Source: a virus. From it: a stretch of DNA of 10,951 bases. Below, piece after piece: positions 2,510 to 10,951 of the stretch. The position numbers and the translations under genes were made by a program. Where the stretch lies: IMG/VR virus record IMGVR_UViG_3300045988_174840. One strand, given 5' to 3'. Within the stretch, counting starts at the first letter, position 1; every line of letters begins with the position of its first letter. The notes below the pieces were generated by a model. The model made no database searches. It saw only the letters and a list, made by a program, of their open reading frames with translations, and was not told the DNA's origin.

Positions 2510-2538
2510 TTGAAAAAGTATAAAAAATATGTTATAAT
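2510..2538 (+). promoter_or_regulatory. Sigma-A promoter TTGAAA-17-TGtTATAAT for the small HTH gene
   Basis: TTGAAA is at 2510-2515 and TG-extended TATAAT at 2533-2538. The ORF-track start at 2510 is the TTG of this -35 hexamer. Confidence 0.6.
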
Positions 2539-2572: not shown

Positions 2573-2749
2573 TTGACAAGAGAAGAATTAAGTGCGGAAT
2601 TGGGTATAAGTGAGAATAGAATATTACGTCACTGGCGGGAAGTGTGTAATAGCTATGAGCGGATTGGGATTAAGTTGATTAAAAGAGGGAAGGGAAAAAA
2701 CGCGGAGTATGGTATTTTAAAAAAAGACGAGACTATAGCAAGATTTTAG
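2573..2749 (+). CDS. Small HTH DNA-binding protein (58 aa) with a TTG start. The ORF-track N-terminus at 2510..2572 is promoter sequence, not coding.
   Basis: The SD AAAGAGGA (2557-2565) sits 7 nt before the in-frame TTG at 2573. Product MTREELSAELGISENRILRHW..., a helix-turn-helix pattern. Confidence 0.5.
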   Translation: MTREELSAELGISENRILRHWREVCNSYERIGIKLIKRGKGKNAEYGILKKDETIARF

Positions 2750-3253
2750 GTGTAGGTGAGGGTATTTATGGTAACGGTTGAAAATACAGATGGGACTATA
2801 GATGTGTATGGTAATCTTGGTTGCGTAATCATATAAATATAGAGCGAAACAAAAGAGAAAGAATCGGGGAATTATGTAAATATTTTATTTCTGGAAAAAT
2901 ATGTGGCGGCAAGGAGAAAATTTTAATAAAAGATATTGATAATAACTATACTAGATGTCTTTCATATGAATCGGAATAAGAAGAGGAGTTTGTTGCGGAT
3001 GAAGCTGGATATAAAGATCTTTGAAGTAAGAATTGCCGCATATAAAAAATAGAGGATTTTCTTTGGAGAGAATTTTAAGATAAGAGGATATTATGACGAG
3101 AAAAGTTTAACTGTTTTGTTGAAAGACGAAATTAAATGTCGAAATGTACACTTTTTCAACAAAATTGTTAAAAAAATATGTTTATATTAAAAGGACGAAA
3201 TTTGTTAAGTTTCTTCCAAAAATTTTAAAGAAAAGTGAAAGGAGTTTAACAAA

Positions 3254-3868
3254 ATGGAAAATTTAACGAATATAATGTATTTATATCTATTGATTCATCA
3301 AGGACATTTTGAAAAGGTGAATTATAGTAAGATATCTAAAGAGTTAGGTGTAACTAGACAAACACTATCAAAACAATATAATTCATTACTAGATAATGAA
3401 ATGATAATAAAAGATGATTTTGGTTTTATTAAAGTTAAAGAAGTTTTAGAATTTGATGAAGAAGATTTAGAAATTATTAAAAATAAAATAGTAGAATATC
3501 CTTCTTCTTATATTGGATATTTACTATTAAAAAGAAGATTATTATACGAAACAGATGCTTCTATTTGTAGTATACTAAAGATAAGTGAAAAATTTATTAA
3601 GAATTATCAACAAAAAATTATTTTTGATAAGAATAATGGAGAAGAAGATGTAGTAAACTATATATATGCTATTGTTTTAAATAAAGAAATAAAGTACGTA
3701 GGTTCAACAGAAGATTTAATAAACAGGATACAAATTCATTGCAATAAAAGAAAGTTTTTAGCAGAGAATAATTTTATTATTTTAGAAAAATGTTCGAGGA
3801 AGAATAGATTTGATAGAGAATCTTTTTATAGAAAGTTATTTAATCCAGAATGGAATACAATTATTTAG
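3254..3868 (+). CDS. Fusion protein: N-terminal winged-HTH + C-terminal GIY-YIG nuclease domain (204 aa)
   Basis: SD AAAGGAG is 9 nt upstream. The N-terminal NYSKISKELGVTRQTLSKQYNSL is wHTH-like. The C-terminal NYIYAIV...KYVGSTEDLINRIQIH...FDRESFY...NPEWN matches GIY-x(10)-YIG with the conserved Arg, His, Glu and Asn. Confidence 0.75.
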   Translation: MENLTNIMYLYLLIHQGHFEKVNYSKISKELGVTRQTLSKQYNSLLDNEMIIKDDFGFIKVKEVLEFDEEDLEIIKNKIVEYPSSYIGYLLLKRRLLYETDASICSILKISEKFIKNYQQKIIFDKNNGEEDVVNYIYAIVLNKEIKYVGSTEDLINRIQIHCNKRKFLAENNFIILEKCSRKNRFDRESFYRKLFNPEWNTII

Positions 3869-3879
3869 AGGAAGGAAAA

Positions 3880-4239
3880 ATGGAAACTAGAGAAAATCAA
3901 AAGGTGGTTACAACTATGAAAGCTTTACATGACAGTAATAATTTATATTCTCCAGTTAATATTGAAGCAGCAAGTAAAGCAATGTCTTTGTTAAAACCTA
4001 ATACTTTTAAAATTTGGTTTTATTTAGGAAAAAACCAAGATCAATATACTTTTGCATTATCTAAAATAGATGTTATGAAATTTTGTAATATATCGCGGTC
4101 TACTTATTTATCTTCTATAAAGGAATTGATTGATACACATTATCTAGTTCCAGATAAAGATGGCTCTAATCATTATAATTTTTATGAATTTCCTCAAGAA
4201 GTAGAAGATGATTTGATTATAACAATAAATAAAGGATAA
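3880..4239 (+). CDS. Winged-HTH DNA-binding protein (119 aa), a possible origin-binding or regulatory protein
   Basis: GAGGAAGGAAAA precedes the ATG at 3880; the ORF-track start at 3850 lies inside the upstream gene. FKIWFYLGKNQDQYTFALSKIDVMKFCNISRSTYLSSIKELIDTHYL resembles replisome-organiser/Rep-type wHTH. The iteron region begins 10 bp after its stop. Confidence 0.65.
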   Translation: METRENQKVVTTMKALHDSNNLYSPVNIEAASKAMSLLKPNTFKIWFYLGKNQDQYTFALSKIDVMKFCNISRSTYLSSIKELIDTHYLVPDKDGSNHYNFYEFPQEVEDDLIITINKG

Positions 4240-4249
4240 AATAAAGATA

Positions 4250-4289
4250 GGTATAATTTTAATACCCTTAAGGGTATTAAAATTATACC
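4250..4289. repeat. Perfect 18-bp inverted repeat GGTATAATTTTAATACCC-TTAA-GGGTATTAAAATTATACC (an iteron core in inverted orientation)
   Basis: The arms 4250-4267 and 4272-4289 are exact reverse complements. Confidence 0.9.
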
Positions 4290-4291
4290 TC

Positions 4292-4318
4292 AGTGGTATT
4301 AAAATTATACCAGAAATA
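4292..4318 (+). repeat. Iteron-like 27-bp direct repeat AGTGGTATTAAAATTATACCAGAAATA, copy 1. The core GGTATTAAAATTATACC also occurs at 4273-4289.
   Basis: Identical to 4466-4492. Both copies are followed by similar AT-rich TATATTATA tracts. Confidence 0.85.
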
Positions 4319-4338
4319 ATACATATATTATATTATAA

Positions 4339-4406
4339 AAGAAGTAATTTCATTACTTCGTATTCAAGCACTTCGTGCTTTCATACTCGTAATGAAATTA
4401 CTTCTT
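4339..4406. repeat. Large composite palindrome: 18-bp outer arms AAGAAGTAATTTCATTAC / GTAATGAAATTACTTCTT enclosing an inner hairpin AGCAC-TTC-GTGCT
   Basis: The outer arms 4339-4356 and 4389-4406 are exact reverse complements. The inner hairpin is at 4367-4379. Confidence 0.85.
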
Positions 4407-4465
4407 AGCCGCCGATAATTTTGCAAAATGTCGAAAAAGTGTAACACAATATAATATAATATAAT

Positions 4466-4492
4466 AGTGGTATTAAAATTATACCAGAAATA
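4466..4492 (+). repeat. Iteron-like 27-bp direct repeat, copy 2
   Basis: Exact copy of 4292-4318, 174 bp away. Confidence 0.85.
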
Positions 4493-4545
4493 TTACATAT
4501 TATACTATATTATATTATATAACTATTATATAATAATAATAATAT

Positions 4546-4582
4546 AGGTAATGTATCATACCTTCGGTATGATACATTACCT
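4546..4582. repeat. Perfect 17-bp-stem hairpin AGGTAATGTATCATACC-TTC-GGTATGATACATTACCT (a UUCG-type loop)
   Basis: Exact inverted repeat. It lies at the boundary between the AT-rich origin-like region and the purine tract. Confidence 0.85.
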
Positions 4583-4599
4583 TAGTGTAAATTAAAATG

Positions 4600-5400
4600 A
4601 AGAGTTTTATGCGGGGTGGGGTATTTAGTAGTTGAATCCGCTTTGTTTTAGAGGGACTCTTGTTTAATTTTAAAATGTCAAGGAACGTTTTAAAAAATGA
4701 TTTGAAAATTTTAAGGTTTAAGTAAATTAGGAAAGTTTTTCGGAAGGCATGAGAAAAAGTAAGAAAAGAAGTATGGTATATTTAGAGAATGGCAAAGAAT
4801 ATTACTGAATAATAACAAAGAGTTAGAGAGTTTTGTTAAAAACGAGTTATGGTTTTTTGGTTAGAAAAGTGTGGAAGAGGGTATTTAAATTATAAGAGAA
4901 GTATGGGAGTGCGGAATTGAATTTAATTAAAGTGCTTCCGCATTTAAAAAGCAAGGTTAAATAAAAATTGCGGGTTACAGAATTGCTTAAATAAAATTAT
5001 TAAAATTTTGCGTGAGGAGTTTGATTTTGGAGAGAATTAAGGGTAGCTTTAATAAAATATAAAGATTGGATTAAAGGTGCGTAAGGTTAAGATAATAAAA
5101 TATTTTAGAATTAGAGGGAATTGATGATAGGTTAATAAAAATAATAAGACTGAGTAAAGAGAATTTAATGTTTGGATTAAGAGAAAGTATAAGTTAGATT
5201 AAGAGAGAAGAAGGTTGAAGTATATAAAATAATAAGCGGAAGTGAGGATTTTGAGATTGGGTTAAGAGAGGAGTGAGATTAGAGTGAGAGAGCGTAGAAT
5301 TGGAGTGTAGAGAGGATGAGAGTGAGGCGTGAGTGGAGAAAGGATAGAGCGAGGCTGAAAAAATGCGAGAAAAAGGTGAAAAAAATTGTGAGAGTGAAGT
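4600..5400 (+). repeat. ~800-bp non-coding tract that is almost cytosine-free on the + strand (G/A/T only). It carries degenerate GATTAAGAGAG-type repeats.
   Basis: By eye there are about 40 C in about 800 nt, against abundant G. The motif (G/A)GATTAAGAGAG(G/A)AG recurs near 5068, 5174, 5196 and 5258. There is no SD-led ORF of meaningful length. Confidence 0.8.
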
Positions 5401-5430
5401 GCTCAGCCTCACTCTCCCTATCCTACCTCA
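5301..5430. repeat. Long imperfect inverted repeat GAGAGGATGAGAGTGAGGCGTGAG / GCTCAGCCTCACTCTCCCTATCCTACCTC at the 3' end of gene 5438..5833. Candidate terminator or structured element.
   Basis: Arms at about 5301-5330 and 5401-5430 pair over about 20 bp with one bulge. The strand composition flips exactly here. Confidence 0.5.
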
Positions 5431-5437
5431 GAGCTCT

Positions 5438-6498: not shown

Positions 6499-6900
6499 TT
6501 ACTCCTCTACAGCTTCCTCTTCCTCTTCCTCTTTTGCAAGAGAGAAATAAGGAACTCTTTTTTCAACTGTTCTAACTACCTCTCCAGATTCGATAAGCTG
6601 TTTAAGAAGAGCCGATAATTTCTGAGAAGAAAGTTTACTCATTTCAGAGTTTTCCTTAATCATGGTTGAAACTGTAACAGGTTTATCAAATAACTCCAAA
6701 GCTACAAGAATAAGTTTTTTGACTTCCTCATTTTCTTTCTGGTTTTTGGTTTTTTTACCGCTGGAAGATTTTTTATTCAACAGCTCGATTTCATGTCTGA
6801 GAAAGTTAAGTGCTTCTTCTTTTGGTTCAAAGCTACTTTCTTCCAGAAAAGCACTGATAGTTTCAAACCAATCTTTTTTTGTCATTTTGTCTTTCATCAT
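6499..6900 (-). CDS. Winged-helix-like protein with a poly-Glu C-terminal tail (~133 aa), paralog A. Start is ATG 6900 (or 6897); the ATG at 6906 is too close to the SD.
   Basis: The C-terminal 85 aa (KPVTVSTMIKENSEMSKLSSQKLSALLKQLIESGEVVRTVEKRVPYFSLAKEEEEEE) are about 85% identical to 8803..9210. Helix-turn-helix-wing pattern. Promoter at 6934-6962. Confidence 0.75.
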   Translation of the reverse strand: MMKDKMTKKDWFETISAFLEESSFEPKEEALNFLRHEIELLNKKSSSGKKTKNQKENEEVKKLILVALELFDKPVTVSTMIKENSEMSKLSSQKLSALLKQLIESGEVVRTVEKRVPYFSLAKEEEEEEAVEE

Positions 6901-6933
6901 ATTCATTACCTCTTTCTTTCTTTTGATATATTT

Positions 6934-8802: not shown

Positions 8803-9210
8803 TTACTCTTCTTCCTCAACTTCTTCTTCTTTTGCAAGAGAAAAGTAAGGAACTCTTTTTTCAACTGTCCTGACCACTTTGCCTGCCTCAATCATTTTTT
8901 TCAACAGTGCAGATAACTTCTGAGAAGAAAGCTTACTCATTTCGGCGTTCTCTTTAATCATTGTAGTTACCGTGACAGGTTTACCAAACAGCTCTAAGGC
9001 AATTCCAATAAGTTCCATAAGCTCCTCATTTTCTTTAATGTGAGCTGTTTTCTTTTTGCCTGGTGCTGAAGATTTCTTATTTAACAGTTCAATCTCGTGA
9101 TTGATGAAGTCAAGTGTTTCTATTTTTTTGTCAAAGTTTTCGGTTTTTTCTACGATGCCAACCAGCAGTTTGAAAAAGTCTTTTTTTGTCATTTTTGTTG
9201 TGTTTGTCAT
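8803..9210 (-). CDS. Winged-helix-like protein with an acidic C-terminal tail (135 aa), paralog B
   Basis: SD AAGAGGA is 8 nt before the ATG. Promoter at 9323-9351. The C-terminus KPVTVTTMIKENAEMSKLSSQKLSALLKKMIEAGKVVRTVEKRVPYFSLAKEEEVEEEE matches paralog A. Confidence 0.75.
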   Translation of the reverse strand: MTNTTKMTKKDFFKLLVGIVEKTENFDKKIETLDFINHEIELLNKKSSAPGKKKTAHIKENEELMELIGIALELFGKPVTVTTMIKENAEMSKLSSQKLSALLKKMIEAGKVVRTVEKRVPYFSLAKEEEVEEEE

Positions 9211-10096: not shown

Positions 10097-10160
10097 TTTA
10101 CTATTAACTTGTTACAATGGTATTATATCGCACCTTAGCTTAAAAGTCAAGCATTTTCGT
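10097..10160. repeat. Perfect 64-bp direct repeat, copy A (promoter + leader + last 5 codons of the exonuclease gene)
   Basis: Identical to 10888-10951 at an offset of 791 bp. Confidence 0.9.
10122..10150 (-). promoter_or_regulatory. Consensus promoter TTGACT-17-TATAAT plus a TTGTAACAA leader, lying within the 64-bp direct-repeat copy A. Its -35 overlaps the exonuclease stop codon.
   Basis: The reverse complement reads TTGACT tttaagctaaggtgcga TATAAT accaTTGTAACAAg. Confidence 0.6.
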
Positions 10161-10857
10161 GTAATTCTTTTCTTTTTTTCTGCGGCAGTCTCCAACATGA
10201 CGGCTTAATACTTCTATCCATTTTTTTATGCTGGTCAAAACATTTTTTCATAATTTCAATTTCAATTTTTACATCTTCTAAACCTGTATGAGATTCTACA
10301 AAATCAATATTCTTTTTAATATATTTATAGCATACCTCAGCGTTAGTTAAAAGATTGCCTTTTTCAGACTCAAATCCGTTTTTCTCAGCAAATTTGATAT
10401 AGGTGTTTGTACTTAAAATCATCTGGCAAGCCATATTCCAAATACAAAAATATTCTGTGCCATAAGGGAAAAACCAGCGAATAAAACTTTTGCTATGGTA
10501 TCTAATAGCATTGTTTAATGCTTTTCTATCAAAATTCATATTGTAAGCACCAACTTTTTTCACATTATATTCTTTCATGTCTGCAAACATCTGTTTTCTA
10601 ATATTGAAGATGCTTTTCATGGTTCTTTTTCCGCTTTTTAAATCATCCCAATATTTTGGGATTTTTTTAGCGTAGTAGGCACTATTCATAGCTTCTTTCA
10701 AGTCAATAAATGTCTCAGCGACTACAAAGCTTCTTTCGGTGACAATGTTACCGTGTCTATCTGCAATAGCATAACCAATATCATAAGGGATTGGCTCATT
10801 TACACTATTCGCAGTTTCTGTATCCAATACCATGAAAAACTCTTTTCTTCTACTCAT
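10147..10857 (-). CDS. DEDDh (DnaQ-like) 3'-5' exonuclease, ~236 aa. Start is ATG 10857; the ORF-track start at 10872 is a TTG with no SD.
   Basis: Exo I MVLDTETAN. Exo II VGAYNMNFDRKAL. Exo III HTGLEDV (H-x4-D). GAGGAAA lies 6 nt before ATG 10857. Promoter copy B is at 10913-10941. Confidence 0.8.
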   Translation of the reverse strand: MSRRKEFFMVLDTETANSVNEPIPYDIGYAIADRHGNIVTERSFVVAETFIDLKEAMNSAYYAKKIPKYWDDLKSGKRTMKSIFNIRKQMFADMKEYNVKKVGAYNMNFDRKALNNAIRYHSKSFIRWFFPYGTEYFCIWNMACQMILSTNTYIKFAEKNGFESEKGNLLTNAEVCYKYIKKNIDFVESHTGLEDVKIEIEIMKKCFDQHKKMDRSIKPSCWRLPQKKRKELHENA

Positions 10858-10887
10858 TTTTGATTTCCTCAACTTTCATTTATTTTT

Positions 10888-10951
10888 TTTACTATTAACT
10901 TGTTACAATGGTATTATATCGCACCTTAGCTTAAAAGTCAAGCATTTTCGT
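10888..10951. repeat. Perfect 64-bp direct repeat, copy B (runs to the window edge); contains promoter 10913-10941 for the exonuclease gene
   Basis: Identical to 10097-10160. It includes ...TCAAGCATTTTCGT, the stop codon plus C-terminal codons of an exonuclease-like ORF, which implies a further homologous gene end just beyond the window. Confidence 0.85.

Follow-up and report, generated by a model that had tools for sequence, protein, structure and literature searches.

What does a GIY-YIG nuclease do when it is carried behind a winged helix and encoded next to what looks like an origin of replication? The question is raised by positions 3,254 to 4,239 of the viral record IMGVR_UViG_3300045988_174840, analysed here as a window of 10,951 nucleotides (nt), that is, the whole stretch of DNA; in this locus a gene for a 204-amino-acid (aa) protein (3254..3868, + strand) is followed by a gene for a 119-aa winged-helix protein and then by a region of repeats and hairpins. 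We tentatively favour the answer that the 204-aa protein is a nuclease of the kind represented by the phage enzyme Odn and by homing endonucleases, which an initiator-type winged helix tethers to DNA, which cuts the origin-like DNA of co-infecting relatives or parasites, and which thereby drives the exchange of replicon modules.

The open reading frame (ORF) 3254-3868 has an AGGAG ribosome-binding site 8-9 nt upstream, and independent gene callers made the identical call on more than 20 metagenome contigs. Its product comprises a winged helix (aa 1-61), a helical middle region resembling a helix-turn-helix (HTH; aa 69-127) and a GIY-YIG domain (aa 134-204). The earlier note on this DNA, made from the letters alone, had described a winged HTH (wHTH) at the N-terminus and a GIY-YIG core at the C-terminus, and both halves are borne out. 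The Pfam profile PF01541 (GIY-YIG) matches residues 136-198 with 28.5 bits against a gathering cut-off of 22.6 (E 1.9e-6), so the C-terminal region is indeed GIY-YIG by profile search, and the same profile matches 16 of the 22 family members. The catalytic set is complete (Y136-I-Y138, Y148-V-G150, R158, H162, E189 and N201) and invariant in the close clade. When the profile of the 22-member family is compared with the PDB, the closest solved relative is T4 endonuclease II (2wsh, E 2.4e-6), with weaker matches to UvrC-N (0.07), Eco29kI (0.19) and I-TevI (0.24). In an AlphaFold model with a mean predicted local distance difference test score (pLDDT) of 82.8, the winged helix occupies residues 1-61 (pLDDT >90), a three-helix HTH-like bundle spans residues ~69-127, and the beta-beta-alpha-beta-alpha core of the nuclease lies at 135-195 (strands 135-142, 145-152 and 174-180, helices 155-165 and 182-195), where pLDDT is only 55-81; in fold searches with the whole chain the winged helix prevailed, and GIY-YIG structures were left unranked. 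The modelled middle domain (~69-127) is a feature that the earlier note had missed. At the N-terminus of the window protein the Pfam HTH models all stay below threshold, and it is at the family level that HTH_24 and HTH_36 are found, each in 14 of the 22 members (best E 9e-11 and 3e-7, respectively). The 204-aa protein is a real three-domain protein, in which an initiator-type winged helix and a small HTH-like domain precede a minimal C-terminal GIY-YIG domain that, judged by its residues, is probably active.

A profile search of 1.84 billion cluster representatives retrieved 63 clusters of this family at E <= 1e-3, 29 of them at E <= 1e-10, and the domain order of the window protein recurs among them, since 42 of the 63 carry both halves. 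The C-terminal half is missing from seven and the N-terminal half from 14, some of these being fragments; the existence of such relatives indicates that the halves are modular. Members have so far been found solely on metagenomic phage-like contigs. Scans of IMG/VR with broad family alignments gave one locus each at most, the 204-aa protein had no match when 50,697 phage records were searched by tblastn, and a literature search returned no description of the family. Catalytic residues are intact in 18 of the 22 aligned members, and Arg, His and Glu have been lost in the other four (P0009, P0032, P0039 and P0041). Among four orthologs, the ratio of non-synonymous to synonymous substitution rates (dN/dS) is 0.16-0.24 in the nuclease domain and 0.3-0.5 in the winged helix; in the middle domain it is 0.9-1.1 in distant pairs, where dS is near saturation. 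By this measure, constraint within the protein is strongest on the nuclease, and the middle domain evolves fastest.

The N-terminal half resembles replication initiators. Among the family N-termini, seven of 22 match phrog_270 'replication initiation protein' (best E 7e-8), six match phrog_678 'O-like' and five match phrog_186 'DnaD-like', and the recognition helix G-x-T-R-Q-T-x-S-K is nearly invariant throughout the family, including lineages whose neighbouring iterons are unrelated. The proposed mechanism builds on this pairing. The N-terminal domains would anchor the protein at a specific DNA site, and the tethered GIY-YIG domain would then nick or cut nearby DNA by the usual chemistry of the family, presumably with one metal ion on Glu189, the GIY-motif Tyr as base, and assistance from Arg158 and His162. 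The target would be origin-like DNA of a co-infecting relative, a satellite or another competitor, and repair from the nuclease-carrying genome would help the linked iteron/initiator module to be inherited and exchanged; the 204-aa protein would then not be the replication initiator of the phage. Such a role is supported by the PF01541 match, the intact catalytic set and the strong constraint on the nuclease domain, and by the initiator-type PHROG and HTH_36 matches of the N-terminus.

It is also supported by precedent. Odn (Gp88) of the Vibrio phage ICP1 joins a RepA_N-like iteron-binding domain to a C-terminal T5orf172 nuclease in a gene of <700 bp, and cleaves the origin of a satellite in an iteron-dependent manner (PMC8263062). 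Like Odn (226 aa), the 204-aa protein is a small phage protein with an N-terminal domain of origin-binding type and a C-terminal nuclease of the GIY-YIG superfamily in which the catalytic Arg and Glu are kept; Odn, too, is tied evolutionarily to homing-nuclease genes, and the replicon modules around its target have been swapped. The two nevertheless differ in several respects: the nuclease of Odn is of the T5orf172 type (PF10544), whereas ours is a PF01541 domain closest to T4 endonuclease II; the N-terminus of Odn is 42% identical to RepA of the attacked satellite, whereas the 204-aa protein shows no such mimicry of its 119-aa neighbour; and Odn lies at the CRISPR-Cas locus of ICP1, not beside iterons of its own genome. 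In the T5orf172 homing nucleases more generally, the nuclease domain is paired with shuffled DNA-binding domains and the nuclease genes lie at the boundaries of exchange between phages (PMC10448857), and this provides a second precedent for the proposed role. Similarly to homing endonucleases (Seg, I-TevI, I-BmoI and the T5orf172 homing endonuclease genes of ICP1), the family has modular halves, is found in large virulent phages, lies at a putative exchange boundary and is subject to decay and loss. However, I-TevI and Seg have an N-terminal nuclease followed by C-terminal NUMOD, zinc-finger or HTH modules, and this order is reversed here; TIGR01453 gives the window protein only 15.7 bits against a cut-off of 56. 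The T5orf172 homing nucleases, for their part, mostly use zinc-finger (CapR-type) DNA-binding domains.

The earlier note had called the reversed domain order unusual. This holds with respect to I-TevI and Seg, but the order itself is known from Odn, from the restriction enzymes Ahi29725I and Apa233I, and from a wHTH fusion to GIY-YIG that was already listed in 2006 (PMC1564403). Ahi29725I and Apa233I are characterised type IV enzymes of the winged helix-GIY-YIG class which cut Dam-methylated DNA near G6mATC (PMC11037411). They share with the 204-aa protein the winged helix first and the GIY-YIG domain last, and one could thus imagine that it, too, is a modification-dependent restriction enzyme sensing methylated adenine in foreign or host DNA. 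We consider this very unlikely. Ahi29725I and Apa233I are defence enzymes of Acholeplasma in which a DpnI-like winged helix reads N6-methyladenine, and we set them apart without direct sequence comparison; no DpnI-type winged helix is among the matches listed in the PDB sequence and fold searches, the N-terminus resembles initiator-type wHTH domains instead, and the gene lies in a phage early operon beside iterons rather than in a bacterial defence locus. A PADLOC scan gave no meaningful match to a defence system.

The 204-aa and 119-aa genes are co-transcribed within a + strand island of genes. The earlier note had announced a second, stand-alone wHTH gene at this place: the gene is real and its product is a winged helix in the predicted model, but it starts at ATG 3880 and not at 3850, which gives a protein of 119 aa (3880..4239, + strand). 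HTH_36 is detected at E <= 0.05 in all seven members of the 119-aa family tested (best 2.3e-4), the window protein itself remaining below the gathering score. A fold search with its model gave weak matches only (E >= 0.08), and these are generic wHTH structures (RctB domain 1, a DnaD-like primosome protein and TubR) which do not discriminate. The protein is 59-79% identical in relatives that have the same iteron sequence, and in L011 (L numbers denote related contigs) it is 100% identical, versus only ~89% for the 204-aa protein. Because it is the better conserved of the two and the iterons beside it are unchanged, the 119-aa protein is the probable iteron binder.

The iteron region that the earlier note had placed after this second gene is indeed present. 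The 17-bp iteron GGTATTAAAATTATACC occurs in four exact copies, at 4250 (inverted), 4273, 4295 and 4469, with a chance expectation of 0.01 and no such outcome in 200 shuffles. Iterons 1-3 (4249..4311) are spaced by 22-23 bp and are then followed by the invariant motif CCAGAAATA(A/T)TACA, which is kept in L009, L014, L015 and L016; copies 1 and 2 form a perfect palindrome of 21+21 bp (42 bp, 4249-4290). Downstream comes hairpin 1 (4339..4406), which can be read directly in the sequence and has an 18-bp outer stem and an apical mini-hairpin AAGCAC-TTCG-GTGCTT, then a promoter-like site that reads rightwards into iteron 4 (4431..4460, + strand; 10 of 12 consensus positions, a consensus match only), of which the block TGTAACACAATATAAT is conserved in L015. 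Iteron 4 and an AT-rich tract of variable length, a candidate unwinding element, occupy 4469..4545; near-identical genomes differ in this tract by indels of ATATTAC and ATA units. Hairpin 2 (4546..4582) has a perfect 17-bp stem and a 3-nt loop. The region thus contains at least three repeats in helical phase, an AT-rich tract and a neighbouring gene for a predicted cognate DNA-binding protein, which is the anatomy of an iteron origin, and we infer that it is a replication origin, a view strengthened by the comparative data. The segment 3880-4590 as a whole resembles lambda O/ori, SPP1 G38P/oriL and plasmid Rep/iteron systems in its winged-helix gene, its 17-bp iterons at about two helical turns, its AT-rich tract, its inward promoter and the co-conservation of iterons and protein. 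It differs from them in that the 119-aa protein is a DNA-binding domain only, without a helicase-loader or oligomerisation part, and in the extra nuclease gene of the operon, which is foreign to those systems.

The comparison with plasmid systems was also the frame of reference of the earlier note, which had remarked that the 204-aa protein is not a standard plasmid Rep. The remark is correct, as Rep_3, RepA_N and HUH gave no Pfam or NCBIfam match for this protein, but the frame is not: the window belongs to a phage genome of ~133-137 kb. A plasmid-type or rolling-circle replication initiator, which the iteron region adjoining the gene might suggest, is therefore the least credible of all the functions weighed here. 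The element is a ~135-kb phage, the Rep-type profiles are silent, and the hydrolysis of DNA by GIY-YIG enzymes does not pass through a covalent tyrosyl intermediate, on which rolling-circle initiators depend. A reading of the locus as a plasmid replicon was likewise ruled out by the contigs of 133-137 kb carrying phage genes.

The synteny of the nuclease gene extends over deep divergence. In the clade of the window, the order HTH-GIY-YIG gene, 119-aa gene, iterons is kept in L009 and L014, whose nuclease proteins are 52% and 43-44% identical to that of the window, with 119-aa proteins 72-79% identical and the iteron sequence unchanged. L015 retains the 119-aa protein (59%) and the iterons, but its upstream gene is a 131-aa HTH-only homolog which ends exactly where the nuclease domain is expected to start, and in L016-L018 an unrelated 183-aa protein replaces the 204-aa protein. 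In L009, L014, L015 and L016 alike, the iteron sequence and the 119-aa protein are conserved together. A second subfamily, 30-36% identical to the window protein, has different neighbours: in L021 and L026 the HTH-GIY-YIG gene is followed by a 66-aa gene, a DUF6291+HTH_7 protein (52 bits) and repeats of the AAATTTGCAAA or AAATTTGTAAA type, with the same convergent - strand gene next and, in L021, long hairpins as well, and L022 and L025 have the same AAATTTGCAAA-type repeats downstream of the gene. In a third subfamily, represented by L029, six copies of AAATGGTCAAAAATTTCTAT come after the gene, then a 209-aa tandem winged-helix protein (ScpB-like, phrog_3396 at 1.6e-7) and then five further copies. 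L031, whose contig is too short for repeats to be visible, has a similar tandem winged-helix partner that matches several Rep PHROGs and DnaD-like phrog_186 (3e-9), and L033 has the same parts in a rearranged gene order. In the three lineages the nuclease gene is thus consistently accompanied by an iteron module, and these modules are of three unrelated kinds. This linkage reinforces the view that the region is origin-like; furthermore, the occurrence of three kinds of module beside one orthologous nuclease gene indicates that replicon modules have been exchanged there.

A trace of such exchange may be visible between the window and L011. Nucleotide identity is 84-87% over 3500-3800, rises to 99-100% over 3800-4400, and then returns to 84-88%; the nearly identical block (10550-11150 in L011) spans the 3' end of the nuclease gene, the 119-aa gene, iterons 1-3 and hairpin 1. 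From the alignment, it looks like an exchanged or conversion tract bounded by the nuclease gene. The three kinds of iteron module, the rearrangement in L033 and this jump in identity all support an Odn- or homing-like nuclease that promotes module exchange. The absence of the nuclease in L015 and the loss of residues in four of the 22 members point in the same direction, since decay of this sort is typical of homing-type genes.

The same linkage could, however, mean that the enzyme works on its own genome. It would then bind near the iterons, the AT-rich tract and the hairpins and nick a hairpin, cruciform or duplex there, and replication would start or restart from the resulting 3'-OH or break, in a nick-primed or recombination-dependent manner. 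Such an own-origin nickase is the main rival of the favoured reading, and we regard it as possible but unlikely. In its favour, each of the three lineages examined shows the linkage to iterons and hairpins, regardless of which iteron-binding protein it has; the anatomy of the region is canonical (iterons 22-23 bp apart, an AT-rich variable tract and a promoter reading in); the nuclease domain is under strong purifying selection; and some GIY-YIG enzymes, such as Slx1, are structure-selective. The hairpins themselves are maintained by compensatory changes. In L012 and L013 a C-G pair of hairpin 1 has become T-A, and L014 and L015 have equivalent hairpins with different stem sequences. The loop of hairpin 2 is TTC in seven loci and the exact inverse, GAA, in five (window, L001-L008 and L011-L013), both orientations being found among genomes with identical 204-aa proteins. 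This flip/flop polymorphism suggests that the palindrome is repeatedly opened and copied, which would fit an own-origin nickase, or that templates are switched; template switching at palindromes could invert the loop without any nuclease. A narrower version, in which the GIY-YIG domain is directed to hairpins or cruciforms and nicks the GAA/TTCG-tipped palindromes beside the iterons, with replication proceeding from the nick or the unfolded hairpin, would explain the flip/flop loops among near-identical genomes, but we judge it rather improbable.

Several observations count against a nickase dedicated to the origin of the phage itself. L015 keeps the partner gene and the iterons with an HTH-only protein, L016-L018 have the unrelated 183-aa protein instead, four of the 22 members lack Arg, His and Glu, and L006 has no hairpin 1. 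We know of no GIY-YIG replication initiator, and our literature search found no GIY-YIG enzyme acting in replication initiation. Among the roles that the earlier note had proposed, the nicking initiator is thus the least supported, given the nuclease-less L015, the residue losses and an invariant recognition helix next to unrelated iterons, whereas the origin-specific endonuclease and the mobile homing nuclease are those that the evidence favours.

Some further observations concern the repeat region itself. The otherwise near-identical L006 (~11060-11110, corresponding to window 4312-4484) lacks everything between iterons 3 and 4, and with it hairpin 1 and the promoter-like site; the direct repeats of the iteron+CCAGAA unit could have recombined here, or the assembly may have collapsed. 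The apical mini-hairpin of hairpin 1, AAGC(A/G)C-TTCG-G(T/C)GCTT, is found in the window (4366-4381), in L016 (~1455-1475) and in L033 (~6560-6680), and is conserved even alongside a different iteron-binding protein. On the other strand in L016 and L033 it reads GCGAAGC, a sequence known to form an unusually stable DNA mini-hairpin and to be present at some origins of single-stranded DNA phages. The possibility that the palindrome and hairpins are simple terminators was rejected, as the stems are GC-poor, proper T-runs are lacking and the first palindrome consists of two iterons.

The Odn- or homing-like reading also has weaknesses of its own. The recognition helix is near-invariant, yet the three lineages have no DNA motif in common: a search of the gene-flanking regions for a candidate target of the helix found only A/T low-complexity words. 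Two copies of AAATGTCGAAA, one upstream of the gene and one in the repeat region, were discarded as a chance occurrence (36 of 200 shuffles do as well). Comparison of the N-terminal family with the 119-aa family by hhalign gives a probability of 52% at 19% identity, which is the level of generic wHTH similarity and not of mimicry, and no long Rep protein with the same N-terminus was found among the 63 family clusters; with so generic a resemblance, the 204-aa nuclease is not predicted to read the neighbouring iterons. Homology to Odn itself is not detectable, as the family profile A2 aligns to ICP1 ORF88 with an hhalign probability of 0.3%, and the T5orf172 profile PF10544 gives no match at E <= 1. 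Classical homing genes are more sporadic, whereas this gene is syntenic across phages whose proteins are only ~30% identical and is present on each contig read of the near-identical phage. Purifying selection and the association with iterons and hairpins would be just as compatible with a function at the origin of the phage itself, and the putative conversion tract comes from a single pair of lineages.

T4 endonuclease II (DenA), the closest solved relative, suggests a different function, namely an early or middle nuclease that degrades host or foreign DNA, with the HTH domains adding affinity. The best profile match is 2wsh, well ahead of UvrC, Eco29kI and I-TevI; both proteins are phage nucleases that have the IYAI...YVG/YIG, R...R and NPxWN motifs in common; and the gene is located within a block of many small early-type genes with their own promoters. 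But T4 endonuclease II is a stand-alone enzyme (a 143-residue chain in 2wsh) without HTH domains, has a long insertion that is absent from the minimal domain here, and serves to degrade cytosine-containing host DNA in bulk. The presence here of two DNA-binding domains and of an invariant recognition helix speaks for a defined target, the tight synteny with iteron modules would be left unexplained, and no evidence was obtained of a protective modification of the phage DNA. The likely timing of expression is a further objection. In three relatives (L021 5997-8075, L029 5001-6425 and L031 1031-2612) TAG is read as a sense codon, Gln by alignment, and in-frame TAGs occur in the HTH-GIY-YIG gene, in the partner genes and in the second GIY-YIG gene of L021, with none in the flanking small - strand genes. 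This pattern hints at delayed rather than immediate-early expression of the HTH-GIY-YIG gene. A degradative nuclease of this type therefore appears improbable to us.

The protein might, alternatively, be mainly a regulator of transcription or replication, as a repressor or activator of the island promoters or as a competitor at the origin, with the nuclease domain as a minor addition. HTH-only versions exist (the 131-aa protein of L015 and the seven N-terminal-only cluster representatives), two homologs are annotated by the Joint Genome Institute (JGI) as ArsR- or GntR-type regulators, four members are, from their residues, predicted to be catalytically dead, and I-TevI doubles as an autorepressor. 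The nuclease domain is dispensable in some lineages. Nevertheless, no other part of the protein is so well conserved or so constrained, 18 of the 22 members have the full catalytic set, and no operator-like repeat was found upstream of the 204-aa gene, the one recurring motif being AAATGTCGAAA, at chance level, so that we hold a primarily regulatory role to be doubtful.

If the 204-aa protein is indeed an Odn- or homing-like nuclease, Odn is not a one-off, and the fusion of an initiator-type domain to a GIY-YIG nuclease is a recurrent phage strategy, with a separate family of such fusions in abundant gut phages; the locus would then offer a concrete case in which replicon modules are swapped beside, and perhaps because of, a nuclease gene. 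If the origin of the phage itself were its site of action, it would be the first member of the GIY-YIG family to take part in the initiation of replication, and initiation by hairpin nicking would be a mechanism not previously described for large virulent phages, in which a GIY-YIG enzyme does a job otherwise known from HUH or parvovirus-type nickases. With either reading, the family is a predicted source of small, modular, sequence-directed nickases or cleavases, and the locus marks a likely replication origin in a phage group without a cultured member.

Genes for exactly this 204-aa protein are present on contigs of 74-137 kb in many metagenome assemblies (five of the contigs measure 133-137 kb), and the 204-aa gene was found on every contig read of a near-identical phage. 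Its place differs between these contigs, as expected for a collapsed or permuted phage genome. The window is the early-gene arm of this uncultured phage of ~135 kb (~133-137 kb), not a plasmid. Its G+C content in 500-nt windows is 21-40%, mostly 25-33%, and it contains many short - strand genes, each with its own TTGACA/TATAAT-type promoter and strong ribosome-binding site; the repeat families D2-D8 of the window are these promoters. No similar DNA was found when the window was compared by megablast with phage and plasmid collections, and a relative was found on a 139.6-kb contig binned as an "uncultured Bacilli" metagenome-assembled genome. Just upstream of the island and divergent from it lie two genes, for an AAA ATPase and a SprT-like metalloprotease. 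The ATPase (674-1786, - strand; AAA/nSTAND3-like, phrog_2376 at E 6e-102) is the sole gene here with clear relatives in cultured phages, being 44% identical to an ATPase of Enterococcus Herelleviridae (Kochikohdavirus) and 43% identical to that of an uncultured human-faecal phage. The metalloprotease gene (1836-2342) is duplicated in the L011 lineage.

The genes at 2573-4239 form the + strand island, which is flanked by two blocks of - strand genes, and GC skew reverses sign at its edges (at ~2300 near its start). The island begins with a sigma-70-like promoter with an extended -10 element (TTGAAA-17-TGnTATAAT, 2510..2538, + strand; 11 of 12 consensus positions), from which transcription diverges from the - strand early genes. 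The first gene encodes a small HTH protein of ~58 aa from TTG 2573 (2573..2749, + strand) with sub-threshold HTH matches only; the mechanically called ORF start at 2510 lies inside the promoter, and L009 carries a homolog at the same position. The following segment (2750-3253) is gene-poor and the least conserved part of the island, with 69-80% identity to L011. At the equivalent place L009 has three extra genes (81, 127 and 98 aa), and the 52-aa ORF 2821-2979 of the window may be a remnant of the Cys-rich 81-aa protein.

On the other side of the hairpins, a tract of ~850 nt without a called gene (4590..5437, + strand) runs to the convergent - strand gene. It is purine-rich and depleted in C, with only 1-4 C per 100 nt of the + strand over 4700-5400 and a GC skew of up to +0.74; zero genes were called in it on eight contigs, and its identity to the L011 lineage is 86-94%. 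Rfam gave no match in this tract, which could be a non-coding RNA or an R-loop-prone leader. On synteny only, we infer that it belongs to the module. Similar C-poor tracts lie 3' of the hairpins in L014 (2300-2700) and L016 (1520-1800).

Rfam and tRNA scans of the window gave nothing above threshold. Two paralogous 135-aa proteins with acidic tails are encoded on the - strand (6499-6906 and 8803-9210; 226 nt at 77% identity), and the gene content between them differs in otherwise similar contigs (L001-L013), which marks a variable region of small early genes. Lastly, an exact 64-nt direct repeat (10097-10160 and 10888-10951, the second copy reaching the end of the window) surrounds ORF 10147-10872, whose product resembles DEDD-type exonucleases (phrog_20187 at 5e-60; phrog_192 'DNA polymerase exonuclease subunit' at 2e-6), and the repeat contains a promoter-like TTGACT...TATAAT on the - strand.

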